Source of the DNA: a virus
IMG/VR virus record: IMGVR_UViG_3300045988_144737
DNA: 64,000 nt
Reading direction: 5' to 3' (one strand)
The translations under genes were made by a program, and so were the position numbers. Position 1 is the first letter of the stretch. The number at the start of each line of letters is the position of its first letter. Below are positions 982-45,833 of this stretch, in pieces. The notes below the pieces were generated by a model. It saw nothing but the letters and a program-made list of their open reading frames with translations. It searched no databases and was not told the DNA's origin.

Positions 982-2262
982 TTAATCCATTCCTAAATGA
1001 TAAACCCTATCATGAATATCGTTTGCTCTCCCATCGTTAAATGGGTTTGTACTAATGTATCCGCACACTCTAAGAGCGATATTCATTTTATTAAAATCAT
1101 CATTTCCACATTGAGGACAATGAAACTTAAAATCATCTTCCATTTTTATATCCGTACAACCGCAAATATGACAATAGCTTGTAGTTGTATTTATCTCAGC
1201 ATACATAATTGTTCCATAAATATGCTTTAACACCTCTATTATAGCATCGATGTTATTAGTCATATTAGGTGTTTCAATATAACTAATTGCTCCGCCCGAA
1301 CTCAATTCTTGAAATTCACTTTCTATAGTGAGTTTACTAAAAGCATCGATTTTTTCGCTTGGTGTTACATGATAAGAATTTGTTACATATTTTTTATCAG
1401 TAATCCCATCAATTATACCAAATCTTTGTTGCAAACATTTAGCAAATTTATAAGTTGTCGATTCAATTGGACTACCATAAACGGAAAACCCAATATTAGT
1501 TTGTTCTTTCCAACGTTCGCAAGCATCATTTAACGCCTTCATTACTTTTAAACCAAAGACTTTTCCCTCGAATTGGGTGTGCGATTGATTGGTCATATAT
1601 TTTACACATTCATATAATCCAGCATAACCCAAAGAGATTGTTGAATACCCACCATATAATAAATCATCAATGACATCTCCCTCTTTTAGGCGAGCATACG
1701 CCCCATGTTGCCATAAGATAGGAGCAACATCAGATTTTACCCCTTTTAAACTATTGTGTCTAACCATAAGTGCTCGATAACACAACTCTAATCTTTCATC
1801 TAATATTTTCCAAAACTTGTTAAAATCGCCTTCGCTAGATAGTGCCACATCAGGAAGATTTATGGTTACAACACCTTGATTAAATCTTCCGTAATATTTT
1901 GGTTTTCCTTCACTATCATAATAGGGAGACAAAGCGCTTCTACATCCCATTACAGGAAAAACGCTACCCTCTTTTAGCTTTTTCATTATCTTGGCTGAAA
2001 TATAATCAGGCACTAGTCTTTTGGAACTACACTCAGCTGCCAATTTTGTCAAATAATAAAACTCACTATCCTCATGAATATTATTTTCGTCTAAGACAAA
2101 AATTAATTTAGGAAACGCAATAGTGATTGGTTTTCCTTGAATGTTTTTGACACCCTCTATTCTTTGCTTTAATACCTCTTCGATAATTAATGCCAAATCT
2201 TTTTTTGTTTGATTATCATCAACTTCGTTTAAATACATAAACATTGTTGTGAACGGTGATTG
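982..2262 (-). CDS. nrdD: anaerobic ribonucleoside-triphosphate reductase NrdD, exon 2 (C-terminal part)
   Basis: C-terminal glycyl-radical motif ALRVCGYIS and Zn-ribbon CHICGC...CPQCG. The frame stays open upstream of the first Met through QSPFTTMFMYL, matching the class III RNR block NGQ.PF..FMYL. Confidence 0.9.
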   Translation of the reverse strand, partial: QSPFTTMFMYLNEVDDNQTKKDLALIIEEVLKQRIEGVKNIQGKPITIAFPKLIFVLDENNIHEDSEFYYLTKLAAECSSKRLVPDYISAKIMKKLKEGSVFPVMGCRSALSPYYDSEGKPKYYGRFNQGVVTINLPDVALSSEGDFNKFWKILDERLELCYRALMVRHNSLKGVKSDVAPILWQHGAYARLKEGDVIDDLLYGGYSTISLGYAGLYECVKYMTNQSHTQFEGKVFGLKVMKALNDACERWKEQTNIGFSVYGSPIESTTYKFAKCLQQRFGIIDGITDKKYVTNSYHVTPSEKIDAFSKLTIESEFQELSSGGAISYIETPNMTNNIDAIIEVLKHIYGTIMYAEINTTTSYCHICGCTDIKMEDDFKFHCPQCGNDDFNKMNIALRVCGYISTNPFNDGRANDIHDRVYHLGMD

Positions 2263-3225
2263 CGTGTCCGTTCTACACGTAGACTATCTCTTTACCATGC
2301 CACTATTATCTCAACAATGGTTTAGGTAGATGGCGCTTCCAAACAAGGAGTTTCACCTTGAATGTACGGATTTCATAAGCATATCCAATGACTTAGCTCG
2401 TATATCCTAGTCGTTACACCTTCAAAAAGGTTTCCCTTAATGCTTGGCACGATATTACCTACAATAAATATTTATATTTATCTAATACTTTTTCTATCAA
2501 TTGTTTGTTTTTAATAATTGTAGTTTTCTTTGGTTTTATAGGTTTGCCATCATTATCAACATACCTAAATACAAAACCACCTGTACTACCTCTTTTTCCT
2601 CTCGCAACAGCACACACGTGTGAAAAACACAAGTCAAGCTCTTTCGACGCTAACATTGCAGACTCATAAACTATATCGGTTGTTAGTTCTAAAATTCTTT
2701 TTGACGTAGAATTTAAATCTCCAACCTTTCCCCACATATGATTTAGTTCGCCCATTTGAGATAATGCAATTTTTTGCTTTGTTTCTTCTTTGTGCAAACC
2801 ACCTTTTCCACCAGGCTTAATATTATATCCATTGTTTATCGAGTCATAAAATGATATATAATACTTCTCTAATTCATCTAGTGTTTCTTGGTTGTTTATA
2901 TTGTGTTCTATTGTTTCAAATTTAAAATTTTCAAAACCATATTTACGCATTGCTTTTATAATAGGTCTTACACCTTTGCTTCTATATTTAACATCATCAC
3001 TATATTGCTTTATCCTTTGCTCTAAAGTCTTATGAGATTGACCTATATATATTTTTCCATTAGCAATGTTTGTGATTTTATATATAATAATTTTACATCA
3101 CCCCTTATTAAAGATATAAAATTATTGCAGGTTTCATCGTTAGCCAACATATTGTTGACACCCTAGATTTCTAGGTTCACCATCTTATGCTCCATAATGT
3201 TTCCACTATGGACAGCCAATTCTTA
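2263..3225 (-). mobile_element. group I intron interrupting nrdD (boundaries +/- a few nt)
   Basis: Exon 1 ends ...ACAAATGGT (U) with an in-frame TAA immediately after. The intron ends ...GGACACG (G) before CAATCACCG. It contains a GATAGTC P7-like block, an internal HEG ORF, and blocks shared with the intron at 41748-42660. Confidence 0.75.
2459..3091 (-). CDS. intron-encoded GIY-YIG homing endonuclease
   Basis: The frame upstream of the tracked Met (2950) reads KIIIYKITNIANGKIYIGQS, the GIY...YIG motif. It is open only to 3097 and has no ATG there; an ATT/ATA start after GGGGTGA is assumed. Confidence 0.7.
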   Translation of the reverse strand: MIIYKITNIANGKIYIGQSHKTLEQRIKQYSDDVKYRSKGVRPIIKAMRKYGFENFKFETIEHNINNQETLDELEKYYISFYDSINNGYNIKPGGKGGLHKEETKQKIALSQMGELNHMWGKVGDLNSTSKRILELTTDIVYESAMLASKELDLCFSHVCAVARGKRGSTGGFVFRYVDNDGKPIKPKKTTIIKNKQLIEKVLDKYKYLL

Positions 3226-4131
3226 ACCATTTGTTGATGACATTGTTATTAGTTGATATTGAATTGTTTGGACTCCGTCTCTAATCTCCTCTCGAACACG
3301 TTGTTCAACAATAGAATCTAGGTCAGTTGTAATATCAATTGACTCGCCAACACTTGCCAAAATATCCATTGCCTCCTTCTCAACTTGTTCTCTAATTTTT
3401 TGTCTACTAATATCAACAAAAGGAGCTAAATGAGATAGCGTAAAAGAATTTCCTCCAAATTGAGATGATGACACTTGTGTAATCACTTGTGTAGCAATAG
3501 TACACGCAGTTTTGAACGAATGTGGTTTTTCTATTTTTACTCCGCTAATTACAGTTCCGTTTTGCAACATATCCTCAAGATTAATCAAACAACAATTTGT
3601 CAATGGCATTGTTGGGCTGTAATCCATATCATGAAAATGAATCAATCCTTCGTTGTGCGCATTGACAATATCTTTTGGTAAAATTATCTTTTGTGCCATT
3701 TCCTTACAAGTAAATCCAGCTAGATAATCTCTCATAGTCGAAACAATACGAGTATCTTTATTACTGTTCTCTTTATTGGCTTCATCATTTGTTCCATTGA
3801 TTAGAGATTTTATTTGATTATATTTTTTATCCAAATCTTTGTTTAATTCACGAGATAATTCTCTCTTATATCTATACCGAATGAACGCTCGAGCAACATC
3901 AACGTACCCAAAATCACAAAGCGTACTCTCTATATTATTTTGGATTTCTTCGACGTTAATATCATCATTCATTTTTTTAATCTTAACATACACACTACGT
4001 AAGACCTTGTTAATGTCTTTATCAAATACATTTGCTGAACCGTAAACTTCTTTAAAAGCCTTTGTGATAGCAACTTCTATTTTAGTTACATCAAATTTTA
4101 CTTTTCTACCATCTCTTTTTGTTATTTCCAT
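3226..4131 (-). CDS. nrdD: anaerobic ribonucleoside-triphosphate reductase NrdD, exon 1 (ATP-cone and N-terminal part)
   Basis: N-terminus MEITKRDGRKVKFDVTKIEVAI is ATP-cone-like; ends ...YQLITMSSTNG just before the conserved Q.PF block found in exon 2; SD AGAGAGGAA upstream. Confidence 0.9.
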
Positions 4132-18386: not shown

Positions 18387-18532
18387 AACCTTATAAAACT
18401 CTATAAAGCTTGTTTAATTCCCTATTCAACGTATCCTATTTTGCTACAAAGCTACTCTAGTTTGATATAATACTCCAAGGGCGTAAATTCCCATACAACG
18501 CATGGTACACATTAGTATTATCTTTTAAGTGA
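18387..18532 (-). ncRNA. putative omega-RNA (reRNA) scaffold of TnpB-1
   Basis: Non-coding tail after the tnpB stop. It carries TTTACGCCCTTGGAG and a terminal TTAAACAAG-hairpin(CTTTATA/TATAAG)-GTTTTGG module that parallels the tail of TnpB-2. Confidence 0.5.
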
Positions 18533-19654
18533 CTATTCTACTAATCCATATCTACTTAAATTAATACTTGCATTAAAATCTCTATCTATAATGCAACCGC
18601 AATCTTCACAAATATAAGTTCTTTCTGATAATGATAACTTAGTTTTTATATGTCCACACTCACTGCAAGTTTTTGAAGATGGATACCACTTGTTTGCTTC
18701 AACAAATTCTATTCCATAAAACTCGCATTTATATTTCATTTTCACTTTGAAATCATATAAACATTGTTCTGCAACAGCTTTTGACAAATGACGATTTTTC
18801 ATCATTCCCTTAATATTAAGTGTTTCCATAACAACTCTTGATGGCTTGGTTTTCACTATCTTATTCGTTGCTTGGTGAATATGATTGCTTCTTATATTTG
18901 CTAATCGCCTATGAAGTAATCTAATTTGCTTTTCGAGTTTTGCAATATTCTTAGTTTTGACATACTCCTTTCCTTTTTTATTCATATCATATTTTCTTGA
19001 ACATTGTCTTTGTTTTCTCTTTAATTTTTTCTTTAGTTTTTTAACTTCTTTAGTTTTATTAATGTTTTTAAAAGTCATTCCGTTGGAACATATAGCCAAG
19101 TCTTTTATACCTATATCTATTCCAATAGATTCCCCTGTTAATTCTACATTTTTTAATTCTCTTTCTATGCCTATTGACAAGTACCAATACTTTCCGTCAA
19201 AGCTTATTCTTGGATTACTATATTTAACATCTAAAGGAATTGAATGAGGTTTAATATTAATCCATCCAACCTTTTCTATATTTACAACATTGTCCTTAAC
19301 TTTAAGTTTGACGTTATCATTATAGAATGATGGTTTAGATTTCTTTTTGCTTTTAAATCTAGGTTTACCAGCTAACCCTTTGAAGAACCTTTTATAAGAA
19401 TTACAAGCATCTTTTACAGCTTGTTTAGCTACATTATTAGATACATCATTAAGCCAAGCCAACTCACCTTTCTTTAATTGAGTTATCTCTTTTCTCAAAT
19501 CTCCATCTTTTATGAATTTACCACCATTCTTATAATTATCTTCTTGTCTTGCAAGTGTCCAATTATATATATATCTAGATGTCCCTGCTGATTGCCATAA
19601 TCTTTGTTCTTGAATTTTTGTTGGATATAATCTAACTCTTTTCGCTAGCATCAT
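18533..19654 (-). CDS. tnpB: TnpB RNA-guided endonuclease (OrfB_IS605/Zn-ribbon)
   Basis: RVRLYPT N-terminus; RuvC triad GIDIGIKD / VVMETLN / DRDFNASIN; Zn ribbon CSECGH...CEDCG. All catalytic residues are present. Confidence 0.9.
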   Translation of the reverse strand: MMLAKRVRLYPTKIQEQRLWQSAGTSRYIYNWTLARQEDNYKNGGKFIKDGDLRKEITQLKKGELAWLNDVSNNVAKQAVKDACNSYKRFFKGLAGKPRFKSKKKSKPSFYNDNVKLKVKDNVVNIEKVGWINIKPHSIPLDVKYSNPRISFDGKYWYLSIGIERELKNVELTGESIGIDIGIKDLAICSNGMTFKNINKTKEVKKLKKKLKRKQRQCSRKYDMNKKGKEYVKTKNIAKLEKQIRLLHRRLANIRSNHIHQATNKIVKTKPSRVVMETLNIKGMMKNRHLSKAVAEQCLYDFKVKMKYKCEFYGIEFVEANKWYPSSKTCSECGHIKTKLSLSERTYICEDCGCIIDRDFNASINLSRYGLVE

Positions 19655-31974: not shown

Positions 31975-31991
31975 AAAGGAGAAGGGTAAAA

Positions 31992-32186
31992 ATGGAAACA
32001 AGATTAAGAAAATTATTAAAAAAAGAACTACTAACAGAAAATGAAGTTAAGGAAGTTGAAGAACACGAAGAAGTATTAGAATGTATATATAACGGATATT
32101 TTGATAATAAATACGCTCCAAGTACGTCGTGGTTTAGCGTTAAAACAATCGACAATGGGGAGTTTGATATTTATTGCAAATATTAA
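31992..32186 (+). CDS. hypothetical protein (64 aa from METRL)
   Basis: AAAGGAGAAGGG precedes the ATG at 31992. Confidence 0.55.
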   Translation: METRLRKLLKKELLTENEVKEVEEHEEVLECIYNGYFDNKYAPSTSWFSVKTIDNGEFDIYCKY

Positions 32187-32278
32187 AAAATAATGCTTTA
32201 CTTTATAATATAATTATGGTAATATAATATACGTGAAAGGGTTATATTGATTAATTACATAATAAGGAGGTGAATTTT

Positions 32279-32365
32279 ATGGAATGGTTTATTATGTTGC
32301 CAATGATATTATTTATAGTATTTAGTCTAGCAATGTTATTAATAGATAAATTTAGCAAAAAGTAA
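32279..32365 (+). CDS. 28-aa hydrophobic peptide (MEWFIMLPMILFIVFSLAMLLIDKFSKK)
   Basis: Strong SD AAGGAGGTGA 6 nt before the ATG; single TM-like segment; below the ORF-track cutoff. Confidence 0.5.
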   Translation: MEWFIMLPMILFIVFSLAMLLIDKFSKK

Positions 32366-32400
32366 TAACTATACATAAAAAAATAATAACCCTTTTACAT

Positions 32401-32525
32401 TTTTCTTTGATTTAATTAGGTAGCTACGCATTAATATGCTTATGTACTTTTGTTTTCGATTACATTCTAAATATTCTATGTTTGGATTTTATAAAAATGT
32501 AGTTACCTAATTAAATTAAAGAAAG
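32401..32525. repeat. 27-bp imperfect inverted repeat (24/27) with about 71-nt loop
   Basis: Arm TTTTCTTTGATTTAATTAGGTAGCTAC (32401-32427) against GTAGTTACCTAATTAAATTAAAGAAAG (32499-32525). Confidence 0.7.
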
Positions 32526-32543
32526 ATATATTTAAAATAATTC

Positions 32544-32587
32544 TTTACTTTAATATATTAAACGCTTATAATAGTAGGTGTAAAAAA
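32544..32587 (+). promoter_or_regulatory. early promoter TTTACT-17-TATAAT with partial flanking inverted repeat
   Basis: -35 at 32544-32549 and -10 at 32567-32572. TTCTTTAC upstream pairs 7/8 with GTAAAAAA at 32580-32587. Confidence 0.65.
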
Positions 32588-32602
32588 CAAGGAGGATAAA
32601 AA

Positions 32603-32965
32603 ATGAAATTAAAATTTAAAGAATTATCTAGCAATACGATATTTACATTAGATAATATTAAAAGCGCAATCAAGGAAAGCGAAAATATTACCATAACAAC
32701 AAAGGACAATGAAACAAGTATTTTACTTGATTGTTCTATATGTAATAATGTATTAGTGGATATTTTAGAAAATGATTTAAGAAATAAAAATATCAATATC
32801 TATGATAATCTAACAAATGAGTTTCTTGTCTATGGTAAGGGTGAAAAACTTTTCCAATTATTAAACTTTAGTTATATGACATATCATGAAGTTATAGCAA
32901 TTACACAAAATAAAGATAGTTATGATATATTTATAACTAATCTTAAAACAAAAGATATTAAATAA
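32603..32965 (+). CDS. early protein, paralogue family A (120 aa)
   Basis: SD AAGGAGGA upstream. The C-terminal about 78 aa are near-identical to 29015-29383. Confidence 0.7.
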   Translation: MKLKFKELSSNTIFTLDNIKSAIKESENITITTKDNETSILLDCSICNNVLVDILENDLRNKNINIYDNLTNEFLVYGKGEKLFQLLNFSYMTYHEVIAITQNKDSYDIFITNLKTKDIK

Positions 32966-33069
32966 GGAATAAAAAATTTTACTTATGGATTAAAAAAATA
33001 CTTTACTTTATAATATTATTATGATATCCTTATATTGTAGAAAGGGATAGGAAATTAATTCCTATAAAG

Positions 33070-33354
33070 GTGAAAGAAATGTTTGTAAAAAATTGTGGTA
33101 ATGTTAAAATGGTTTTATTCTTAAATGATGGTTGTTGTGATATGTGTTTGATTGATGAATATAATACATATAACAAGTATAGTGATTTTTCAAGTGTGAT
33201 TGACACTTTCGAAACACAAATGATATTAATTTCTAGTGGTGATGATGTTAAAACATTCTTATTATATAAAGAAGAATATTATGAAATTGGTGAATTGATT
33301 GATATATTTGAAGAAGGATGTAAATATGTTTATGGCATGAAAGGTTGTGAATAA
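33070..33354 (+). CDS. hypothetical protein (94 aa; GTG, or ATG at 33079)
   Basis: ORF in the early string; no motif recognised. Confidence 0.5.
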   Translation: MKEMFVKNCGNVKMVLFLNDGCCDMCLIDEYNTYNKYSDFSSVIDTFETQMILISSGDDVKTFLLYKEEYYEIGELIDIFEEGCKYVYGMKGCE

Positions 33355-33550
33355 AATGAACTTAGGCGAATTATTAATGAAAGATTTTAAAGATGATGTT
33401 ACTATTTTTGATAAAAATAATAACATTATTGCAAGTGGTAATAACGATGATTTATTTGATATGCTAGGGTATTATTTCCTAGATTTAAAAGTTCTTAGAA
33501 ATGACGATGGTATGATTAATGTTGATATTAGTTTAGGAGGTAATGAATAA
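33347..33550 (+). CDS. early protein, tandem module family B (67 aa)
   Basis: Shares L.ELL....V..FDKNNNI.A.G....LF..L.YYFLDLKV......NVD..LGG.E with the next ORF. Confidence 0.6.
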   Translation: MNKMNLGELLMKDFKDDVTIFDKNNNIIASGNNDDLFDMLGYYFLDLKVLRNDDGMINVDISLGGNE

Positions 33551-33744
33551 TGACGTTAAAAGAATTATTACTTGAAAACTTAGATAGAGAAGTTGTTTTA
33601 TTCGACAAAAACGACAATATAGTTGCAAATGGTAGAGCAGGTAATTTATTTAATACATTGAGTTATTATTTCCTAGATTTAAAGGTTATTTTTAATGGTA
33701 AACTTTGGGTTAATGTTGATTTTAAATTGGGAGGTGATGAATAA
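33550..33744 (+). CDS. early protein, tandem module family B (64 aa)
   Basis: Paralogue of 33347-33550; stop and start overlap (ATAATG). Confidence 0.6.
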   Translation: MTLKELLLENLDREVVLFDKNDNIVANGRAGNLFNTLSYYFLDLKVIFNGKLWVNVDFKLGGDE

Positions 33745-34133
33745 TGGAATTATTAAAGGATTATTTAGAAAGTGAAGAGTTTAATAAAAAAATATTTATC
33801 CATGATAAAAATGAAAGGCTAGTTGTCTACGGGGATAAAGAATCATTAAAACACCAATGCAACCATAAGCTTCAAAGCGCAAGAGTAGCCAAAGTCTTAG
33901 ATTATGGAAATACCTTTTACATTTTTGTGGATTTTATGGCTCCATTAAAATTAGGAGATGTTTTACGGGATTACTACTATGATTTTGTGTATATCTATGA
34001 TTCTAATGGACAAGCAATAGTAAAAGCCAAAAGCTCAAGCATTTTAAAAATAATGGAAAAATCTTTATATAATAAAGAAGTCTTTGCCATCAAAGAATAT
34101 GTTGATGATATTTATATTGGAATCAATTTATAA
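33744..34133 (+). CDS. early protein with two family-B-like modules (129 aa)
   Basis: N-terminal half LLKDYLES...IFIHDKNERLVVYG and C-terminal half LGDVLRDY..YIYDSNGQAIV repeat the family B pattern more loosely. Confidence 0.55.
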   Translation: MELLKDYLESEEFNKKIFIHDKNERLVVYGDKESLKHQCNHKLQSARVAKVLDYGNTFYIFVDFMAPLKLGDVLRDYYYDFVYIYDSNGQAIVKAKSSSILKIMEKSLYNKEVFAIKEYVDDIYIGINL

Positions 34134-34154
34134 ATATAAATAAGTAAATAAAAT

Positions 34155-34182
34155 ATAACCCTATTTTAATAAGTAGGGTTAT
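34155..34182 (+). terminator. hairpin terminator closing the early operon
   Basis: 9-bp stem ATAACCCTA/TAGGGTTAT with a 10-nt loop and a weak T-tract (TTATAG). Confidence 0.5.
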
Positions 34183-34189
34183 TTATAGT

Positions 34190-36630
34190 ATCTAATAAAA
34201 TACATATAATAATCTACAAGCTAAATATAAAGCCATAGAGAAACGTTTTAGGAATTTAGGTATTGTTATACCCTTTTAATAAAACAACGCCCTAATGGCT
34301 TGTATTTAGCTTATTTTAATATATCGATAATGTAAGTGTTTTTATAATCATAATTGTAATTACAAAGTGCTATATCAATATATTTGCTATATCAATATAT
34401 TAAGGTGTTAGATTATAAAGATTATTAGAATAAGCTATTTTAAAGCCTATACAAGCGCTTTTGTGTGTAATAGGTATTATTTATCCTATCATAGTAAAAC
34501 GATTGCCTATGGGCTTATATTTGCGTTCTAGGGCTATCATATGCTTTTATATCTATACTATGTGGAACAATGTTATTTGATTGTAATGATAATGATATAG
34601 TATTGATTATTGTTGAATGTAGTTTTTAAAACCATGTTTAATAGTTGGTATAATCAAATGAATGTTATTAAGTAATAATGTATATATGTAATAATGTTAT
34701 AACAATATAATGATAGGTAATAATGTAAGTTCATTGTCATATTGTTATAACATTATTAAGTTAGATATATATTATTATTGTATTGATATATCATGGTTAT
34801 ATAGTTATGTAGTAATGTTAATGTATGTAATATGATGTAGTATCATATACTATGTAATGTAATGATAATGAATATGTATTGTAATATAAATATGATAATT
34901 ATATTTTATTATTTAGATAAATATATTATTGTTTATATTTATATTAATATGATTTAGTGTGTGATGTCTATTGTAGAGCATTTAACGCTTGTATGAGCGT
35001 TGTTTGTGGTAGTTAGGTATAATTGGTATAGTTATATAGTTTATGCGTGTATGGTCTTGTATTGTGATTGTATGGTGTGTAGTAGGATATATGATTATAT
35101 TTATATATTGTTAAGGTGCTTAACTATGTTATATATGTATGCTATGGTGTATGGCTTATACATGGCTTGTGTGGTGTGTTTAATGGTATATGGTGTAAAT
35201 GTATTAGTTAATAGGTTTGGTGCTTAGATTGGCTTGTATTGTCCTTGTGGTGGTTGTTAGGGTAATATGGTTAGTGTGGTATAGGTAGTATGGGTAATGG
35301 TATAGGATAGTAAGCGGGTTGGTGATTGTGTGTGTTGTGTGTGTGTGGGTAAGTATTTTTTAAAAGGTATGCCATAGTCCAATCGTTAAGGTGCTTAAGT
35401 ATTGGGGTAATTTTAAAATGTATTATAATATTTAGAATTTAAAATTATATTTCTTTTTATTTAAAAAATACAATCTAATATGTATTAGGTTGTATAAAAT
35501 AGGGGGCATGGTACAAGTTAGCGTATATGGGGGCATATTTGAAAATATAATCGCTATTTTATTTGATAGGATGGTGCTTGTACTTATCACATACGCTTTA
35601 TATCAATTTCGTATGTTCGTAGTTCAATTCATTAACTATGGCTTAAAATTTAACGTATTCGTGAACGATATATAATTTATAATGTAATTTAGCCATATAT
35701 TCCGTTTATGATATATTATTCATATATAGTCGTTACCGTGTTATATGATAGTCGCATAAATTAATGTTCTTATACTACTATGTATATGCAATTGTTGATA
35801 AAATAGTACCTATGGCATTGTAATTTATGATATATGCGATAAATAAGTGTGATTTTAAAATAGATTGATTTTATGTATGATAATATGATTGAATTACTAT
35901 ATATAAACGTGCATAAAAGGCATAATGATAAAAATTGTAACCACATTGGGTGTATTAGGTGTATTAAATATTAAATTTATTAAATTAATTGATTTTATTA
36001 GTTGCTGTATATAACTATATAATATATATACACTGACTATCAAAAACTTATAAACTTATAAATTTTATAAAATTTAATCTATCAACTCATCACAAGTTAC
36101 AAAAAATAAATATAATACTCGAACGAATGTGAGAGCAAGTGAACAAAGTGAACGCCCAAGCAACGAAATTGAACGAAGTGAAATGAGTACATATATAAAG
36201 ACAAAACAACTAATACACATATAATACTTTATCAATTGCGAATTGCTTAATTAACAATGGATTAATTTATCTACCACATTTCACTATGCAAGAGATAATT
36301 ACTTAATCAATAATAACATATTGCAATAAGAAAACTTGTACGCTAAAGAAATATATATATTGATTAAGTATTTCCAATGCAACTAGCGCTTACGCCTACC
36401 GCACTTCGTTTGGTACAACATTTCATGTTGTAATTATATTTTTATTTAATATACATTTAATTAATAATAAATATAATATACCTAAGCAACGACGAAGTCA
36501 TTTCACGCTAGTGAAACAATCATAGTACAGCAAATTAAAATATTGAATAAATTTAATAATGGGTATTGAAATGATATTATGTATATGTTATTATTATCTT
36601 GTGAATAAGATATTTATGAAAGGAGATATA
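34190..36630. other. 2.4-kb ORF-free region: C-depleted GT-rich tract, (TG)n, dispersed ATGGCTT motifs, GTGAA iterons (candidate origin or ncRNA locus)
   Basis: No SD-preceded ORF; strand-asymmetric composition; repeats described in the findings. Confidence 0.6.
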
Positions 36631-36631
36631 T

Positions 36632-37150
36632 ATGAATAAGACATTACTAGATGTTGAAGTGCCTAAAACTTGTGGCGAGTGTATGTTTTATAGAAAGCAC
36701 AGAGATAGATGTATTGACCATGTATCATGTGTTTTGGGTTCTTATGATGATAGCAATACTAAATATGATGCAAACTATGATAATTCAAGACATTATAATT
36801 GTGCTATTGTAAAAGAACGAGCTATGCAACAATTAGTTGAATACAAAAGTAAAAGAAAACAAAGAGAATTATTAAAAGCCTTACAAGAATACTCATTGAG
36901 AGAATTTGGTGATATAACATATAAATCTATTGATGATATACCAAATGTTATTAATCTTGCTTATGATATAATGGGAGATGAAGAGCATGAGGTACAAATT
37001 GATTTTGACCTTAAAAGACTTCAATGGAAAGAATATATAGATTATGAACTAAAAAGAACAAAGCAATATACAAGTCTCGATGAATTTATTAATAAATTAA
37101 AAAGATGTGCTTATGAGGATATTGCTTATGAAGCTTTTTATGATTTATGA
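36632..37150 (+). CDS. hypothetical protein (172 aa, N-terminal Cys cluster)
   Basis: SD AAAGGAG upstream; CGEC...C..H..C cluster; no family recognised. Confidence 0.6.
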   Translation: MNKTLLDVEVPKTCGECMFYRKHRDRCIDHVSCVLGSYDDSNTKYDANYDNSRHYNCAIVKERAMQQLVEYKSKRKQRELLKALQEYSLREFGDITYKSIDDIPNVINLAYDIMGDEEHEVQIDFDLKRLQWKEYIDYELKRTKQYTSLDEFINKLKRCAYEDIAYEAFYDL

Positions 37151-37179
37151 TTGTATTACAAATAGAAAGGAGATAAAAA

Positions 37180-37617
37180 ATGTCAATGATTAGTAATATG
37201 TTTTTAAAAAAGAAACAAGATAAGAATAATGCAATTAAATCAAACTTAATAGAATTGGAAACAGGACATAAGTGTACAAACGAAGTATATGATATAGTTG
37301 AAAGAACATTAAAGTCAATGCGAGAGGATAATTCATCATTATCAACGTGTTACAATGTTTCAAAAAAGGAAAATACTAATTATCAAAATAATGATTTTGC
37401 AAATGGTGAAGTTGTAATCACCTTAGGCAAAGAAACAAAACAAAGAACAATAACAAATAATGCAAATTACAATTTCCTTAAACAAACGCAAGAAAAAGAT
37501 ATATGGATAGCATATTTAAAAGGGCACGAGGAAATATGGGGATGTGGAAAAACAAGAATGGATGCAATTCAAGATTTGGAGAAATCAATAGCATATGAAA
37601 AAACTACTAGAAATTAA
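37180..37617 (+). CDS. hypothetical protein (145 aa; C-terminal HicB/UPF0150-like segment?)
   Basis: SD AAAGGAG upstream. WIAYLKGHEEIWGCGKTRMDAIQDLEKSI resembles the ...PG..G.G.T.EEA..N..EAI pattern; weak. Confidence 0.5.
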   Translation: MSMISNMFLKKKQDKNNAIKSNLIELETGHKCTNEVYDIVERTLKSMREDNSSLSTCYNVSKKENTNYQNNDFANGEVVITLGKETKQRTITNNANYNFLKQTQEKDIWIAYLKGHEEIWGCGKTRMDAIQDLEKSIAYEKTTRN

Positions 37618-37673
37618 GAGATATGTAAAATGTTTTTCAATAGAATATTCATGCCCCCCATTGTGGAAATGTT

Positions 37674-37877
37674 ATGAGCAAACCATTTGTAGTCAAACAT
37701 TTAGATTACGAGGAAATTAAAGATTTGTTAGAAAAATATAAATCAAATAATAATATATCCCACAATTATTTATTGGAGTATGGTTTGTATGTGGCAAAAT
37801 GTGAGCATTGTCATGAAATTTGTATAATTAATATAAAAAATAAAAGAAAGAAGAGGAATATAAAAAATGGAAAATAA
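37674..37877 (+). CDS. hypothetical protein (67 aa)
   Basis: ORF in the string; basic C-terminus. Confidence 0.45.
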   Translation: MSKPFVVKHLDYEEIKDLLEKYKSNNNISHNYLLEYGLYVAKCEHCHEICIINIKNKRKKRNIKNGK

Positions 37878-38316
37878 TAATTTAAAATTTGAAGAAGTTA
37901 AGGTTGGTCATAGTTATTTGTTAGTATTAAAAAACGGTCATAGCGTTACGCTAAATAATGTTGCTATGGTTGAATATAATGATACTTATTATTTTTATGA
38001 GGCATATGATAAGGGATTACTAGTTGATATGTTGGATGATGTTGTTTTGCAAGATAAAGTTGAATTAGATGCTGATGATGTCAAAGACTTGGTTTGTCAT
38101 GAAAACATTAATATTGTTGACATTGATGAGGAACACGCAATTGGTGTTAATGATTGTCTTCATGATAAATTTCACAATCATAATTTAGAGAATTATTTTC
38201 ATATTGAAGATTTTGATACTTTGATTGGAGTGTTTAACAAAAGCGAAGTTTGTTATGTATTGGATATTACCAATGAGCAAAACGACAATGAAGATTATCC
38301 TTCATTAGTGTCATAA
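37867..38316 (+). CDS. acidic hypothetical protein (149 aa)
   Basis: SD AAGAGGAA upstream; D/E-rich. Confidence 0.55.
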   Translation: MENNNLKFEEVKVGHSYLLVLKNGHSVTLNNVAMVEYNDTYYFYEAYDKGLLVDMLDDVVLQDKVELDADDVKDLVCHENINIVDIDEEHAIGVNDCLHDKFHNHNLENYFHIEDFDTLIGVFNKSEVCYVLDITNEQNDNEDYPSLVS

Positions 38317-38328
38317 GGGGTGTTATTT

Positions 38329-38478
38329 ATGAAGAATGATTTAAGACTATTATTAATATATATATTATTTGTGTTGGGGTATTTTATTATGACATACCCC
38401 GATGCTTTTATAACAATGTTAATAGTTGTGTGTTTTGTTTTTATCATACTTAGTAATGACAATAATAAATTAAGGTAG
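38329..38478 (+). CDS. 49-aa membrane peptide (below ORF-track cutoff)
   Basis: GGGGTG precedes the ATG at 38329; two hydrophobic segments (LLLIYILFVLGYFI, ITMLIVVCFVFIIL). Confidence 0.5.
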   Translation: MKNDLRLLLIYILFVLGYFIMTYPDAFITMLIVVCFVFIILSNDNNKLR

Positions 38479-38491
38479 TGTATAGGGGGAT

Positions 38492-39826
38492 ATGATGAAT
38501 TTAGATAAGTTAAGCAATGGTCAAGTTGTTAAAAACTATAAAACAATGTGCGAAATATTAGAAGAGCCTTACATGGGTGGTAAAAGTAGGGTTATACAAT
38601 TAGATAAATGGAGATTGTATTTTGATTATGGTAAAGACGGTGTAAAGTTTATAATCAATGATATTTATACACAAGAAAAAACAAATAAATTAAAACAAGC
38701 ATTAGATGATGTAAAAAGAAATAAAATAGAAAATAGAAAAAAAGAAACTCAAAGAAAAAAAGATTTAGAGAAAAAAGAGAAGGAACAAAAAAGAGAAGAG
38801 AAAAGAAAAGAAAGAGAGCGATTGGAGAGGGAAAAGTCAAAAAAGAAAAAATTGAGAGAACAAAAGAAATTAGAGAGAGAAAAATTAAAGAAAGAAAAAG
38901 AAGAACGAAGGAAGCTAAGAGAACAAAAGAAATTAGAAAGAGAAGAAAAACAAAGAGAAAAAGAAATAAAAAGAAAAGATAGAGAGCGATTGAATAAAGA
39001 AAAAGAAGAAAGAAGAAAATTAAGAGAAGAAAAAAAATTAGAAAAAGAAGAAAAGAAAAAATTAAGCAAAGAAAGAAGAGAAAACGGTCTTAGCAACTTG
39101 TTATACAACAATATATGTTGTGTCTTGAATAAATACAAAGAAGATAAAATTGTATTAACAAAAAGTAAACTATTAAAAGATGTTGGTATGATTAACGATA
39201 AGTTTGGAATGAAGTTAAGCGATAAGGAATTGGAAAAGATTAATTCAAATCAATTTAACTATAATGAATTTAATAAAATTGTATTAAGTAGAATATCATC
39301 AACCCTTGATTATGTGTTTAAAAAAATGTCTAATGATTGTTTAATAAAAAGAGATACTTATTTATTAAGATATGATAATCACGAATTTTATGATTTATCA
39401 ACGTTTAGAGAAGTTGATATGAATGAAGAATATATTATTAAAGATATTTATAATCAAGTCTTAGCAGAGTTTGAATTAGGAAAAGAAGCAGACCTTATGT
39501 ATAAATCTAATAGCGTTAAAGAAAGTTTTTACGCTAAGGTCAGCGAAGAAATAAATAATAGATTTGATTGTAACGGACATTGCAAAGCGTATGATATTCA
39601 AATTTTAAATAGGGATAAGTTAAAAAATAAAACATTAGATAAAAGAAGATTAAATAATACATTTGTTACAATATTAAAAGATACTATCAAAAACAAATAT
39701 ACCAGAACTAATAATAAGGGCATGATTATGTTATCTGAAAATAATGACAAGGCTTTTATGTATGATAATTACTTTTTATCTAATCAATATGATTTATTAA
39801 ATAAATTTATAAGATTAAACAACTAA
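38492..39826 (+). CDS. hypothetical protein with central about 115-aa K/E/R-rich charged helix (444 aa)
   Basis: SD AGGGGGA upstream. The central segment KKEKEQKREEKRKERERLEREK...KLREEKKLEKEEKKK is encoded by a polypurine tract. Confidence 0.65.
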   Translation: MMNLDKLSNGQVVKNYKTMCEILEEPYMGGKSRVIQLDKWRLYFDYGKDGVKFIINDIYTQEKTNKLKQALDDVKRNKIENRKKETQRKKDLEKKEKEQKREEKRKERERLEREKSKKKKLREQKKLEREKLKKEKEERRKLREQKKLEREEKQREKEIKRKDRERLNKEKEERRKLREEKKLEKEEKKKLSKERRENGLSNLLYNNICCVLNKYKEDKIVLTKSKLLKDVGMINDKFGMKLSDKELEKINSNQFNYNEFNKIVLSRISSTLDYVFKKMSNDCLIKRDTYLLRYDNHEFYDLSTFREVDMNEEYIIKDIYNQVLAEFELGKEADLMYKSNSVKESFYAKVSEEINNRFDCNGHCKAYDIQILNRDKLKNKTLDKRRLNNTFVTILKDTIKNKYTRTNNKGMIMLSENNDKAFMYDNYFLSNQYDLLNKFIRLNN

Positions 39827-40191: not shown

Positions 40192-41747
40192 ATGAAATCT
40201 CCAAAGTTGTATAAAGTTTTAAATTTTAATTTAAAGGAAATTATTGAAGAAAACTTTATGATAGTTGGCGATAATCAATATATCAAAAGTCATTTAAAGT
40301 ATACCAGTGATAATCAAGAGTTTAGACAAATTAGATTAATTACGAATACAAATAATAAAATGAATAAATATATTGCTTTTGTTGAATTTGATGGAGGAAC
40401 AAAGGAAGAGGATTTAAAATCAATAGTTAGAAACGGTTTTAGATTTAATGACCAAGAATTTGTATTAAGTGAACGCAGTGGTTCTATGAGCAGAACTGGG
40501 AAGTTAAGTTTTGTTGATAAAACTATCGCACAAGAATTAGATAAAAGAATATCTATGGATAATAGGATTGACAAAACAGTAGTAAGCAAATTATCAGCAT
40601 ACAGAGGGTTGATGTTAACTGGGTGTCATATGTTAGAAAATTATATGCCTAAGATAATTATTACCAAAGGATTAAATAGAACTATAAAAAATGTAAAAAT
40701 TAAATGTTTGCATGATAAACAAGATACATTCAAAAATGAAGATGGAGAAATTATCGAATATACTAAAAAAGTAATAGAGGAAGAAACTAGAGATATTGAA
40801 ATAGATTGTTTTGATGGAATGGGTATAGTTCATCCTTTAGTTGTTGAAGAAATGACTAAAGAGTTAGATTTGCCAAAGGATATTAATACTATGATTGTTA
40901 GAGCGTGCTATATGAAGGGTTGTATTCATAAGGTTGATTATACAAAGTTTTTTGTTGACCATGGTGTTGAATGGATAGAAGATATTTGGGGTGTTAAACA
41001 TAGCGTTTATGAACCTATGATTATTATGGATAAGTCTATGTATAAAGGTTTTAATTATTTCAAATATTACAACGATTATAGAGATTGGGAATATTATTTA
41101 TCTAAGTTAGAAGAGTATGACCATGTATTTGGCATTGCTAAATACAATTTTAATGAAAAAGATGAGAAAATTTATACAAAGGCAAATTATCAAATATTAC
41201 AAGATTTAAACATCCCATTTTCAGATTTTGAGAAGTTGGGAGATAAAACTTTGGATTATTTTCAAAAAGTCATAGATGGCAAAGAGGAATATGTAAAAAC
41301 ATTCTTAGGAATTTGTGGAGATAAGTATAAACTTAGTAGTAATTATATTAAAGCCATTGCTAAAAATCCAGAGATGCTTAAGCAAGAGGGTGTAGTAAAT
41401 CATGTTATAAATTTATTAAAAGGAAATATAAACGATGCTAAATGTGGAAAGTTATATTTAAGAGGTTGTTTTAAGTTTGCAGTTCCTGATTTGATTTTGT
41501 TTATGGAGCATATTGGTGGACTAGAGCCAAATGGTTGTTTAGGATTTCAAGAGTTTTGGACTAGAGGTAGATGTGGTTACGAAGTTGGAAAAGAATATCT
41601 CATTACACGAAATCCACATATTTGCAGCTCAGAACACGATGTAGTTACATATGTAAGAAATGAACTAATCGAAAAGTATTTAGGGCATTTGCAAAATGTT
41701 TGTATGGTGGACTGTAATAGCCCACACATGGCGAGATTAAATGGGAT
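40192..41747 (+). CDS. RdRP-fold (YonO/QDE-1-like) single-subunit RNA polymerase, exon 1
   Basis: Ordered motifs: SKLSAYRGLML, FDGMGIV, VRACYMKGCIHKVD, DKSMYKGF, ANYQILQDL, ITRNPHICSSEHD, SPHMARLNG. The tracked ORF runs 11 codons further into the intron. Confidence 0.8.
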
Positions 41748-42660
41748 AGGACAATCTGTCCCACTATATAGAAATATATAGTTAAAAACACAGTGAACCT
41801 AGAAATCTAGGGTGTATGATTTACGATAAGGAATAGTAGGAAATGACTATTAGAAATCATGCTAACAGGGGAAGCATTAATTGTAATCCTGTGTTGTATT
41901 AAATTATAATCTATATTATATTAATTTAAAGGAGGTGTTGATATGTCATTTGAAATAAAAATTAACAATGAGAAGGAATGGAAAGAAGTCAATATTAATG
42001 GATTATCATATGTTATAAGTAATTATGGTGATGTTGTTACCTTATCAAATCGCTCTCATAAAATCGTTCCACATTTGAATAAGGACGGTTATCCAATAGT
42101 AACAGTTGGAAAAAATCCTAGAGTTGGAAAACCAGTTCATTTATTGGTTGCCATGTTATTTGTAGATGGATATAAAGATGGATATGAGGTAAATCACAAA
42201 GATTTTGATAGAACTAATTACCATTATTCTAACTTAGAGTGGGTAAGCCATAAAGATAATATTAATTACTCTTATAAAAATGGTAGACACACTAAAAGAA
42301 TAAATAGTTTGTATGGAAATAATAGAAAATTAAAAAAAGAGGCTTTCTTAGATATATTAAATAAACTAGAAAATGGTATGCCTTGTTGTGATATAGCAAT
42401 ATATTATGGCGTATCTGTTGACGTTGTTTATAACATAAAAAGCGGAAAGACTTATAAAGAATATAGATAATATAGATATAGTTTAATGTAATCAACAGAC
42501 TAGCGAAAGAGTATTGTATGTTCCTATGGGAATATACAAGAGTAATTGAGTAGGGTACATTTGGAGTGAAACTCTCTATTTGGAAGCGCTGTGAGCCTAA
42601 GTCAGTAATGATATGGCTATGATATAGTCGGATATAAATACAATATATGTGTTTATATAG
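41748..42660 (+). mobile_element. group I intron with HNH homing endonuclease (boundaries +/- 3 nt)
   Basis: A 23-nt block GTGAACCTAGAAATCTAGGGTGT (41793-41815) is identical to the nrdD intron. Shared 3' blocks are GTGAAACTC..TTTGGAAGCGC and a GATATAGTC P7-like block. U precedes the 5' splice site and G ends the intron. Confidence 0.75.
41943..42470 (+). CDS. intron-encoded HNH homing endonuclease (NUMOD4 + HNH_3, I-HmuI-like)
   Basis: WKEV...YVISNYGDV (NUMOD4-like); GYPIVTV...HLLVAMLF...VNHKDFDRTNYHYSNLEWVSHKDN (HNH); C-terminal HTH-like segment; SD AAAGGAGG upstream. Confidence 0.85.
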   Translation: MSFEIKINNEKEWKEVNINGLSYVISNYGDVVTLSNRSHKIVPHLNKDGYPIVTVGKNPRVGKPVHLLVAMLFVDGYKDGYEVNHKDFDRTNYHYSNLEWVSHKDNINYSYKNGRHTKRINSLYGNNRKLKKEAFLDILNKLENGMPCCDIAIYYGVSVDVVYNIKSGKTYKEYR

Positions 42661-43699
42661 GGATTTTGACGGTGATTTATTGTTCGTTTTAGACGAACCA
42701 ACCATGATTAAAGGGGTTGATATGTCGATTCCAGTAACTATGGATATTCAAGATAAAATAACTGTAGAACCAGATTATTATAATATTGATAGCATCGAAA
42801 AATTAATAATTAATAATTCTAGTAATAGAATTGGAGAATATTCTAACTACAGCAGTTGCTATCATAACAAGATGAAAAAAACAGAAAAAACAAAAAAAAT
42901 ACATGATGATTATATCTCTACGCTAAGTATTTTTGTTGGCAAAGAAGTTGATGCGTCAAAAACTGGGATAAGATTTAATTTACCAAAAGCAATTGCCAAG
43001 TATGCAAGACCAATTCCATACTTTATGAAGTATCGTAGTCCATATTATGCCACCTTAAGAGATTTTAATAAATACCGAAGTAATATGAACGCAATGTGTT
43101 TTAAAATAGAGAATTGGGAAAGAAAAATAAAATACACAAGAACTTATGATAACTTTGATTATACTATTATGATAGATGAAGGTGTTGAGGATAATCAAGA
43201 TGTTATGGGTAAAATAGAAAAGATTTATTTAGAATTTGTTAACTTATCGCAAGATTTAATTATTGAACAACGTAATTTAAATACTTATGGAGACAATAGA
43301 ATAAAACAAGTAAAGGATAAAAATAATTTAACTATTAAAGAAGCCAAGGATTTGAATAGATATGAAAAAGCAAAAGAGTATATCCAAGATAATTATTTAA
43401 GTGTTAATAAAAGGTTTGCAAAAGAGTATCAAGTTGATTGGGCTTATTATTATGAGGATTATAAAGACAAGTTGTTAAAAATTACAAGCAACAAAAAATT
43501 GATTGTAAATTGTATTGTTAAATTATGTTATGAGAAATATCCAAAAAAAAGCAAAAAGATTTTATGGGCGGTGGTTGGAGATTGGTTACCTAATAACATA
43601 GAAGCAGTCACTCATAATATACCATATCGAGATGATAATGGTGATATTGAGATATTAGGAGAAAGATATTCATTAAAAGAAATTAAAAGCGAGGTGTAA
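42661..43699 (+). CDS. RdRP-fold (YonO/QDE-1-like) RNA polymerase, exon 2 (starts at the catalytic DFDGD)
   Basis: (M)DFDGDLLFVLDEP corresponds to DLDGD.YFV.WD of RdRPs and NADFDGD of multisubunit RNAPs. There is no SD before the tracked Met. Confidence 0.8.
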
Positions 43700-44332: not shown

Positions 44333-44493
44333 TTTCAATATACTTGATGAGCATATTTTTGCTCGTTGAGTATATTATGAATATACTATAATAAACACTC
44401 ATTTTTGGAATTTATGGCTTAGGCGATAACGCTTGCCATTTTAGTAGTGAAATGAATCACCAAAGAGAAAATATACATATAAGGTGATGAATA

Positions 44494-44550
44494 ATGGAAG
44501 TAACTCATGGGCGTGGATATGTATATTTAATGCAATGCTATATTGTTTGA
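44494..44550 (+). pseudogene. vestigial IS200/IS605 Y1 transposase tnpA (18 codons)
   Basis: MEVTHGRGYVYLMQCYIV* resembles the N-terminus of Y1 TnpA (..HGR..VY.L.YH(I/L)V..KYR) and is truncated before the HUH motif. AAGGTGA SD upstream. Confidence 0.5.
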
Positions 44551-44574
44551 TGTGTGAAAAGCGAGGTAAAATCA

Positions 44575-45678
44575 ATGGAGAAAGCTTATAAATATAGGAT
44601 TTATCCAAATAAAAAGCAAAAAGAAATAATTGCTAAAACATTTGGTTCATGTAGATTTGTTTACAATAAATATTTAGCAAAACGCATTGAAATGTATGAA
44701 AATAATAAAGAAACATTTTCATATGTGCAATGTGCCAATGATATGAAACAACTTAAATCAAAATTAGAATGGTTGAAAGAAGTTGATTCCACTGCTCTCC
44801 AATCTTCTCTCAAAGACTTGGATATGGCTTATCAAAAGTTCTTCAAAGAACACTTTGGTTATCCTAAATTCAAATCTAAGAAAACACATAGATTTTCATA
44901 TAAATCAAAATGTGTAAATAAAAATATTCAGTATTGCGGAAAACATATTAAACTTCCAAAGTTAGGAATGGTAAAAACGAAAAACAAGTTGATACCACAA
45001 GGAAGAATACTCAATGCCACCGTTTCACAAGAACCGAGTGGAAAATATTATGTGTCTATTTGTTGTATTGATGTTGATATTACTACATTAGAAAATACAA
45101 ATAATTACATTGGATTAGATTTGGGAATTAAAGAATTTTGCATCACAAGCGATGGAGAAATGATAGAAAATCCTAAGTATCTCAAGAAGTCATTAGATAA
45201 ACTTGCAAAATTACAAAGAGAATTATCTCGAAAATCAAAAGGTAGTTCAAATCGTAATAAAGCAAGAATTAAGGTGGCAAGATTACAAGAGCATATTACT
45301 AATCAAAGAAAGGATTTTCTACATAAGTTGTCTACAAAAATAATTAGAAACAATGATATCGTGTGCATAGAAGACCTTCAAGTAAAGAATATGATTAAAA
45401 ATCATAAACTTGCTCGTAGTATTGCGGACGCATCATGGTCAGAATTTGTTAGACAATTGGAATATAAAGCAAATTGGTGTAATAGAAAAGTTATTAAAGT
45501 AGATAAATTCTTTGCAAGTTCTCAAACTTGTAATGTATGTGGATATGTAAATAAGGGAACTAAAAATCTTAGTGTCAGAGAATGGGATTGTCCTTGTTGT
45601 CATACTCACCATGATAGAGATATAAATGCTGCTATCAATATTTTTAATGAAGGATTAAGAATGTCGCAAGTAGCATAG
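44575..45678 (+). CDS. tnpB: TnpB RNA-guided endonuclease (IS200/IS605 OrfB)
   Basis: YKYRIYPN N-terminus; RuvC triad GLDLGIKE / VCIEDLQ / DRDINAAIN; Zn ribbon CNVCGY...CPCCH; GAGGT 8 nt before the ATG at 44575. Confidence 0.9.
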
Positions 45679-45784
45679 TAACCATAAAGCTAGGGTTGGA
45701 ATAATCCGAAGTTACGCCTGTGGAGATAGAGGTTACGAAGTCTGTGAAACAGGAATCTTGTGGCTTTAGCCATAAGAGGTTCAA
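45679..45784 (+). ncRNA. putative omega-RNA (reRNA) scaffold of TnpB-2
   Basis: The tail carries GTTACGCCTGTGGAG and GTGAAACAGGAAT-hairpin(CTTGTGGC/GCCATAAG)-AGGTTCAA, the stem plus GGTT-type 3' end typical of TnpB right ends. The scaffold probably begins inside the tnpB 3' end. Confidence 0.55.
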
Positions 45785-45833
45785 GCATTTTCCAAAATAT
45801 TTTGTCAATTTGTTTGTAGAAAGGAAGGGTTGT

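Follow-up and report, generated by a model that had tools for sequence, protein, structure and literature searches.

The stretch of viral DNA analyzed here, 64,000 nucleotides (nt) of the IMG/VR record IMGVR_UViG_3300045988_144737 (hereinafter, the window), contains at positions 40192-43699 three plus-strand open reading frames (ORFs): 40192-41781 (529 amino acids (aa)), 41943-42470 (175 aa, with an HNH domain) and 42647-43699 (350 aa). The catalytic DxDGD motif of two-barrel RNA polymerases, here DFDGD, is found at residues 6-10 of the third ORF, and the two outer ORFs are recognized by sequence comparison as the halves of one 864-aa polymerase. We consider it highly probable that the region is a single gene for a polymerase of the YonO/QDE-1 type that is interrupted by a mobile 913-nt group I intron of the phage SPO1 family.

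The continuity of the polymerase gene and the exactness of the insertion are established by intron-less alleles. In a megablast search of phage records, Thomasclavelia phages TR-TP1 and TR-TP2 match the region in two segments that together cover 74% of the query and are 97% identical, and the TR-TP1 counterpart is an uninterrupted 2595-nt coding sequence (CDS) annotated as 'RNA-dependent RNA polymerase'. The pairwise alignment of the window with TR-TP1 contains a single gap of exactly 913 nt. The insertion is also absent from two IMG/VR contigs (L023 and L025) that encode a 99% identical protein, and more than 335 uninterrupted, full-length homologs of about 840 aa each are known. The intron-plus arrangement, with intact exons, recurs in no fewer than 23 metagenome contigs, which come from separate samples; in the ten metagenome contigs that were inspected, the 913-nt intron differs by 0-2 mismatches.

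The conceptually spliced protein matches the Pfam RdRP family (PF05183) in one stretch that spans the junction (residues 72-648, profile positions 56-569 of 582; 69 bits, cut-off 23.8; E=4.5e-19), and ORF 42647-43699 on its own matches this family above the gathering score (E=1.2e-9). It also matches PHROG 8308. Residues D520, D522, G523 and D524 are invariant in 38 aligned homologs. A phmmer search against PDB sequences returned noise only, so that a fold search was required. In the Foldseek search with the AlphaFold model of the spliced protein (pLDDT 89.5, pTM 0.85), the closest structures are QDE-1 (7y7t, E=9e-19; 2j7n, E=2.6e-17) and RDR2, with TM of about 0.5, followed by Thermus phage polymerases and the virion polymerase of the crAss-like phage phi14:2. 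With the conceptually spliced YonO of phage phi3T, the BLASTP alignment is collinear (E=3e-23, 22% identity over 774 columns) and places DFDGD of the window over DNDGD of YonO. Thus, the window protein is assigned to the single-subunit two-barrel RNA polymerases of the YonO/QDE-1 type on the strength of the sequence matches and the predicted model. The initial annotation of this DNA had claimed such an RdRP-fold, YonO-type enzyme of about 865 aa, with the same ORF coordinates and an HNH ORF between the two halves, and had suggested Foldseek as a check. All of this holds: PF05183 is matched above gathering, QDE-1 and RDR2 are recovered along with YonO, and the length is 864 aa, with uninterrupted alleles that are 97-99% identical.

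YonO is the DNA-dependent RNA polymerase for the late genes of SPbeta, and its Asp triad is essential (PMC5467207). By analogy, the window polymerase might perform DNA-dependent transcription of late genes. It shares the fold (Foldseek E 1e-15 to 1e-18) and the DxDGD loop with QDE-1 and plant RDR2 (PF05183), but those are cellular RNA-dependent enzymes with 12-15% identity to it, whereas the window enzyme comes from a phage and is most likely DNA-dependent like YonO. The SPbeta yonO gene is uninterrupted, in contrast to that of the window; the HU-like gene found downstream of the window polymerase is reminiscent of yonN, which lies beside yonO.

Any 913-nt excision within +/-2 nt preserves the reading frame. 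However, U is the last nucleotide of exon 1 only with the cut 41747/41748, and a terminal G that leaves DFDGD intact is available only at 42660. Together with the P1 and P10 pairings and the reading frame, these two nucleotides yield unique predicted boundaries, 41747/41748 and 42660/42661. The internal guide at 41753-41762 (AAUCU-GUCCC) pairs at all 10 positions, two of them G.U wobbles, with the ligated junction GGGAU/GGAUU: P1 is formed by GGGAU 41743-41747 and GUCCC 41758-41762 and ends in a U.G wobble at the splice site, and P10 is formed by GGAUU 42661-42665 and AAUCU 41753-41757. This P1 layout, with the guide 9-12 nt into the intron and directly before P2, is common to the introns of SPO1, CB457P1, phi3T, EFP01 and the Staphylococcus phage. 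The splice point would lie between the second and third nucleotides of codon 519, one base 5' of the first Asp codon. The predicted ligated exons read ...AAUGGGAU joined to GGAUUUUGAC... (junction peptide LNGMDFDGDLLFVLDEPTMIK), so that the product would contain ...SPHMARLNG-M-DFDGDLLFVL.... Beyond 41747, the frame of exon 1 runs for another 34 nt and ends at TAG 41779-41781.

The same junction, ...ARLNGMDFDGD at 41747/42661, had been predicted in the initial annotation, as had the split at the catalytic DxDGD loop. Our own derivation arrives at this junction, with the cut inside codon 519 and a single nucleotide between it and the first Asp codon, and Met519 is found in two more distant uninterrupted homologs (P0015 and P0018). 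That annotation had also noted GGGAT at both junctions and allowed for an uncertainty of about 3 nt. The two copies of GGGAT are indeed present, but they are offset (GGGAT/A... versus ...TAG/GGAT) and shifting the boundaries alters the product; given that U-1, omega-G, P1/P10 and the frame have one consistent solution, the uncertainty is not needed.

The insertion is assigned, by comparison of its sequence, to the family of group I introns that includes the intron in SPO1 gene 31 (IA2-like phage introns). In BLAST searches, its 5' core matches introns of Enterocloster phages (5e-21) and the SPO1 gene 31 intron (2e-7), and the 5' non-coding part matches non-coding stretches within split genes of many Firmicute phages. 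These genes include the DNA polymerase of SPO1 and its relatives, where the CDS is annotated as 'contains intron' and the I-HmuI ORF lies inside; the dnaE-like gene of Enterocloster phage CB457P1 (cut at ...PD/IDLD); nrdD of Enterococcus phage EFP01 and Clostridium phage CS01; polA of Staphylococcus phage PG-2021_12 (Twortvirinae; cut at ...NFGLAYG/); the DNA polymerase of Lactobacillus phage Semele; and yonO of Bacillus phage phi3T. Conserved blocks follow in identical order throughout the related phage introns. In particular, the SPO1 intron has, like that of the window, hairpin A and helices X/Y with the loop AGGAAAUG, followed by GCUAACAGGGGAA, AAUCCUGUG, CAACGACUA, GGAAGCGCUG and GAUAUAGUC, although the identity between the two introns (about 75%) is limited to an 88-nt 5' core. 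Both are located within polymerase active-site codons, but the SPO1 host gene encodes a family A DNA polymerase and the window gene a two-barrel RNA polymerase. The SPO1 intron reportedly self-splices.

The family and fold of the intron are further established by a covariance model, denoted R1, and by covariation. R1 was built from the 81-nt contiguous 5' core of nine other introns, including that of SPO1, with the window left out; it matches the window at 41792-41872 over its full length (104 bits, E=2e-28), the top score among all sequences searched. We also aligned the cores of ten introns, anchored by hand (alignment A2), and on this alignment tested a structure consisting of hairpin A, helices X/Y, P3, P4 and P7, with P3 and P7 crossing (the P3/P7 pseudoknot). 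In A2, 98.8% of the cells are paired, and changes on both sides are seen in 19 of the 32 pairs; none of 500 shuffles was as good, and partners slid by 1-3 columns pair at 31-44%. P3, P4 and P7 pair in 98-100% of the cells, with compensatory changes in P3 and P7.

The non-coding sequence around the HNH ORF amounts to 385 nt and forms the conserved group I core. Its 3' half contains, in order, CAAC-GACUA (J6/7-P7), the variable P7.1, the conserved GAGUAGGGUAC, P7.2 (loop UGAAACU), GGAAGCGCUG (P3'), the P8 hairpin, GAUAUAGUC (J8/7-P7') and the P9 hairpin. In the relatives, P8 and P7.2 keep their positions as hairpins, but their sequences vary and their lengths are too variable for a fixed-column alignment. 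GACUA and GAUAUAGUC agree with the Rfam Intron_gpI consensus at those places, as judged via the full match of an intron from a related locus (L088, below), and 41874-41893 matches P4-P5 of that consensus, as SPO1 and L088 do. Two earlier assignments were dropped: P3 as ACACAG/CUGUGU, since the Rfam alignment of SPO1 and the comparison across the family show that CAGGGG/CCUGU is P4, and P7' as CUAAGUC (around 42601), in favor of UAGUC 42625-42629 within the family-wide GAUAUAGUC block.

The 175-aa ORF inside the intron is, by homology, an HNH homing endonuclease of the I-HmuI type. It matches Pfam HNH_3 (30.2 bits, cut-off 24.8) and NUMOD4 (25.3 bits, cut-off 23.4), the I-HmuI structure (PDB 1u3e; E=2.9e-12, residues 12-114) and PHROG 59 (E=2e-35). 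The I-HmuI protein of SPO1 and the window protein thus belong to one endonuclease family. The ORF lies wholly inside the loop between the (tentative) P6 strands and has its own ribosome-binding site, AAGGAGGUG, 5 nt before the ATG. The ORF of the SPO1 intron occupies the P8 loop instead, and that of a second window intron, in nrdD (see below), apparently the P5 loop; these differing positions suggest independent invasions by ORFs. The proposal of the initial annotation that the polymerase gene carries an HNH-bearing group I intron is accordingly supported by the intron-less alleles, P1/P10, U-1, omega-G, the R1 score of 104 bits, the covariation and the homology to I-HmuI. The features of the gene are listed in Table 1.

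Table 1. Features of the polymerase gene and its predicted intron (window coordinates)
Feature	Position	Strand	Evidence
Exon 1, codons 1-518 and two nt of codon 519	40192..41747	+	Collinearity with TR-TP1; Pfam RdRP
P1 exon strand GGGAU, U41747 being the last exon nt	41743..41747	+	Pairing with 41758-41762
Predicted group I intron, 913 nt	41748..42660	+	Absent from 97-99% identical alleles
Internal guide AAUCU-GUCCC	41753..41762	+	Pairs with both exon ends
P2 hairpin with stop TAG 41779-41781	41764..41781	+	ViennaRNA fold; ORF end
5' core: hairpin A, helices X/Y, P3 5' strand UGCU (41860-41863), P4 5' strand (41865-41870)	41792..41872	+	R1
P5 hairpin and P4 3' strand (AAUCCUGUG)	41874..41893	+	Local fold; P4 pairs in 10 of 10 introns
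P6/P6a 5' strand UAUUAAA, closing the ORF loop (tentative)	41897..41903	+	Complementary to UUUAAUG 42482-42488
Shine-Dalgarno sequence AAGGAGGUG of the intron ORF	41929..41937	+	5 nt upstream of ATG 41943
Predicted HNH homing endonuclease gene, 175 aa	41943..42470	+	Pfam; PHROG 59; PDB 1u3e
P6/P6a 3' strand (tentative)	42482..42488	+	Complementary to 41897-41903
J6/7 CAACA and P7 5' strand GACUA (42498-42502)	42493..42502	+	Conserved in family and Rfam; P7 covaries
P7.1 hairpin, 11 bp	42514..42539	+	Local fold, -12.3 kcal/mol; variable hairpin at this place in relatives
P7.2 hairpin, conserved loop UGAAACU	42560..42581	+	Just before P3' in 10 of 10 relatives; stems differ
P3 3' strand AGCG within GGAAGCGCUG	42585..42588	+	Pairs with 41860-41863; G-C, G-U and A-U variants in family
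P8 hairpin AGCC/GGCU	42593..42618	+	Local fold, -7.9 kcal/mol; sequence differs in relatives
J8/7 AUGAUA and P7 3' strand UAGUC (42625-42629)	42619..42629	+	GAUAUAGUC conserved; compensatory changes in phi3T and CB457P1
P9 hairpin containing ATG 42647	42632..42658	+	Local fold, -8.5 kcal/mol
Omega-G, predicted last intron nt	42660	+	Only G preserving frame and DFDGD given the cut after U41747
Exon 2, from third nt of codon 519; DFDGD 42662-42676; P10 42661-42665	42661..43699	+	Collinearity with TR-TP1; Pfam RdRP

Several observations weigh against this interpretation of the locus. Rfam Intron_gpI (RF00028) gives no match at a threshold as loose as E<=10, either with the complete intron or with each half. 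However, the validated SPO1 gene 31 intron itself scores only 25 bits where the gathering score is 50, so that the miss appears to reflect mainly that the model is poorly sensitive to ORF-bearing introns of this subgroup; the ORF-less CB457P1 intron is missed as well. In the structure, P7 has five pairs with a G.A in the sixth place, P3 has only 3-4 pairs, the assignment of P6 is tentative, and GGAC/GUCC within the P1 loop could compete with P1. Furthermore, A2 was built with the structure in mind, which favors pairing; the one contiguous part left unadjusted is the 81-nt 5' block. The empty site is not identical to the ligated exons: the junction reads GGG AT/G in the intron-plus allele versus GGA TGY in the intron-less one, a difference of four consecutive bases (the DNA of the TR-TP1-type junction is ...AAATGGATGCGATTTTGACGG...), and codon 519 in the close intron-less relatives encodes Cys (TGC or TGT). 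The intron-plus bases improve P1 relative to the intron-less allele, and co-conversion, or adaptation to the guide, might be expected to produce such a difference. Finally, splicing itself is predicted from sequence, and the YonO-like role of the enzyme as a DNA-dependent late polymerase rests on 22% identity and gene order.

An alternative without RNA splicing is a true split gene, in which a free-standing HNH gene landed in the polymerase gene and the halves are translated separately into a two-piece enzyme. Both halves are open, the second has an ATG at 42647, and split polymerase subunits exist in jumbo phages (PMC2919709). However, inspection of the sequence finds no Shine-Dalgarno sequence before ATG 42647, which is buried in the P9 hairpin, the cut would fall inside the metal-binding loop, and such a scenario leaves aside the guide that pairs with both exon ends and the conserved group I core in the 385 non-coding nt; we regard it as very improbable. 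The P7 mismatch, the short P3 and the lack of an Rfam match could instead indicate a decayed, non-splicing intron and a polymerase pseudogene in this phage lineage. Yet neither exon is disrupted anywhere in the 2595 nt of coding sequence, the HNH ORF is likewise undamaged, at least 10 long contigs that come from separate samples contain a nearly identical intron, and the core of the window intron outscores every other sequence searched with R1; moreover, if the analogy with YonO holds, the phage would not be expected to survive without its only late polymerase. A relic thus appears improbable.

There is likewise little chance that the element is a group I intron with splice sites shifted by 1-2 nt, yielding ...NG-R-DFDGD or ...NG-I-DFDGD. 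The junction was placed from sequence rather than RNA and the neighboring 913-nt excisions are all in frame, but only 41747/41748 provides a U-1:G pair in a P1 positioned as in five relatives, only 42660 provides both omega-G and P10, and Met519 exists in natural homologs. An intein or a group II intron, for which nothing speaks beyond the presence of an endonuclease ORF within an essential gene, has a negligible probability and is already refuted by the sequence. The stop codon 34 nt into the insert, the different phases of the exons relative to the insert, and the HNH ORF having its own start and ribosome-binding site are incompatible with an intein. For a group II intron, there is no Rfam match, and the only ORF is HNH/NUMOD rather than a reverse transcriptase.

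With the interruption of the polymerase gene by a mobile group I intron as the preferred explanation, expression could proceed as follows. The gene would be transcribed as a precursor RNA, and ribosomes on exon 1 would halt at the stop codon inside P2 and thus leave ahead of the ribozyme core. The guide AAUCUGUCCC would form P1 with the 5 nt at the end of exon 1 and P10 with the 5 nt at the start of exon 2. A free guanosine, docked in P7, would attack after U41747, and the 3'-OH released in this step would attack after omega-G 42660. The ligated mRNA, encoding ...ARLNG-M-DFDGD..., would direct the synthesis of an active polymerase that, by analogy with SPbeta YonO, might transcribe the plus-strand late block beginning here. 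In mixed infections, the HNH endonuclease would be expected to nick intron-less alleles near the DxDGD codons, and repair would copy the intron in (homing), co-converting nearby exon bases. In its makeup, this is an ordinary mobile group I intron that encodes an HNH homing endonuclease. Homing endonucleases are known to target codons of catalytic residues (reviewed in PMC3984707), and the location of the window intron in active-site codons follows this rule; that review makes no mention of RNA polymerase. The beta-like RNA polymerase subunit of the jumbo phage 201phi2-1 (gp273/274) contains a mobile intron (PMC2919709) and is, like the window gene, a phage RNA polymerase gene with such an element, but the 201phi2-1 enzyme is of the multisubunit type and its insertion site is not reported as the Asp triad.

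Interruptions are also found in other YonO-type genes. Among 80 IMG/VR loci (L023-L102) that were collected in a scan with the family alignment and in which the junctions were read by eye, the polymerase gene is interrupted in 20. The DxDGD codons only (residues ~520-522) are affected in three loci, whereas nine contain an insert only at a second invariant motif, G612 K613 .. D616 .. K619. G621 (~612-618), and seven are interrupted at both motifs. The remaining locus, L088, has an insert in the DxDGD codons and two further inserts (4558-4860, 5031-5305 and about 5450-5739), that is, apparently three introns in one gene; the ORF-less intron near residue 578 is a full Rfam Intron_gpI match (104.6 bits), and the insert before residue 616, probably at the second motif, contains an R1 match. 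There are at least three distinct insertion points at DxDGD: one base before the first Asp codon (as in the window), after the first and after the second Asp codon. With R1, which was run on 16 of the interrupted loci, inserts at both motifs are matched in 13 (E<=4e-5) and a marginal match is seen in a 14th (L091, E=0.1), indicating that the inserts at both motifs belong to the family of the window intron.

Among SPbeta-like phages, the yonO gene is intact in SPBc2, Goe12 and Goe13. At the second motif, it is interrupted by an intron without an ORF in phi3T, SPR and SPbetaL3, and by a longer, ORF-bearing one in SPbetaL4/L6/L7, Goe11, Goe14 and BUCT083. The records of split yonO genes annotate two proteins (yonO_1/yonO_2 or hypothetical). 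In phi3T (L006, KY030782.1), the intron occupies ~1964-2370 and cuts the gene at ...NFTID/VSKFAKT.... As judged from R1 and the conserved blocks, the introns of the phi3T-type genes are of the same SPO1-like family as that of the window, but the insertion is located about 95 codons downstream, after the Asp of ..ID/xxKT.. (D616 here), rather than at DxDGD, and the phi3T intron has no ORF whereas that of the window has an HNH ORF. The open-access papers on YonO, SPbeta-like phages and bacterial group I introns that were covered here, among them a 2014 review of the latter, do not describe any intron within YonO-type genes. Outside these genes, phage CB457P1 (L003) has an ORF-less intron of the same family at ~2487-2828, where the dnaE-like gene is cut at ...RGIEIPD/IDLDS..., which resembles the PDxDxD catalytic motif of Pol III alpha.

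The window itself contains a second intron of this family, 963 nt in length (2263-3225, minus strand), which splits nrdD (exons 4131..3226 and 2262..982) at ...SSTNG/QSPF... and is matched by R1 at 3181-3133(-) with E=2e-8. Its ORF (2950..2459, probably starting further upstream) encodes an endonuclease of the GIY-YIG/NUMOD3 type. In the nrdD gene of TR-TP1, another insert is found that contains an HNH ORF. The annotation of TR-TP1 (L008/L009) breaks up three genes, namely tape measure, nrdD and DNA polymerase, into pieces separated by HNH ORFs (23364-31193, 62758-65881 and 69233-73858); R1 has no match on the inserts in these three genes, which would therefore be elements of other types.

The genome in the window is TR-TP1-like, and its source is a temperate phage related to Thomasclavelia phage TR-TP1. 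The polymerase gene heads a plus-strand block that includes the HU-like gene, lysis genes, terminase, portal and structural genes, and faces away from the minus-strand replication genes, in agreement with the TR-TP1 map. The initial annotation had placed it between early genes rich in sigma-A promoters and the late block; the position at the head of the late block holds, but the promoter enrichment is not supported, with 53 promoter-like sites versus 60.6 +/- 7.4 in shuffles. A 209-aa ORF and, in the window only, a TnpB insertion separate the polymerase gene from the HU-like gene. This insertion (44416-45785, plus strand), located between the 209-aa ORF and the HU-like gene, is absent in 10 of 10 inspected metagenome contigs; it and a second one relative to TR-TP1 (18378-19740, minus strand) each contain a TnpB/OrfB_IS605 gene (44554-45678 and 19654..18533), with 29% identity between the two proteins. 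The only Rfam match at the gathering score in the whole window is a RAGATH-18 RNA at 18481..18418, which follows the TnpB gene 19654..18533 and is probably its guide RNA. No tRNA gene was detected when the window was scanned.

Immediately 5' of the polymerase gene is a 444-aa ORF (38492-39826, plus strand) with a long, repetitive, Lys/Glu-rich middle part and an N-terminus that matches PHROG 36702 (unknown function). The segment of about 10 kb at 28932-38993, flanked by the integrase/MazF end and by the beginning of the TR-TP1 record, has no TR-TP1 counterpart; it contains small plus-strand ORFs without Pfam matches, and about 2.5 kb of it (34134-36631) is without an ORF of at least 90 aa.

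What appears to be new in this case is the class of the host gene and the recurrent insertions at its catalytic motifs. We tentatively suggest, although we consider it rather unlikely in this general form, that the DxDGD codons and the GK..D..KTG motif of YonO-type genes are general landing sites for SPO1-type introns in Firmicute phages, which would make all late transcription dependent on splicing, with the intron nucleases, which would cut the late polymerase gene of co-infecting relatives, serving as weapons in competition between phages or as a timing check on the late program. For annotation, the window gene should be represented as one spliced CDS rather than three proteins: the inspected metagenome contigs all call it as products of 529, 175 and 350 aa, and the yonO genes of phi3T and Goe11/Goe14 are likewise split. 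The intron-less TR-TP1, which has been cultured on T. ramosa YY17, and an intron-plus relative would be suited to studies of homing, and phi3T versus SPbeta offers the same contrast between intron-plus and intron-less alleles in Bacillus subtilis. If late transcription indeed needs splicing, the intron might be a control point.

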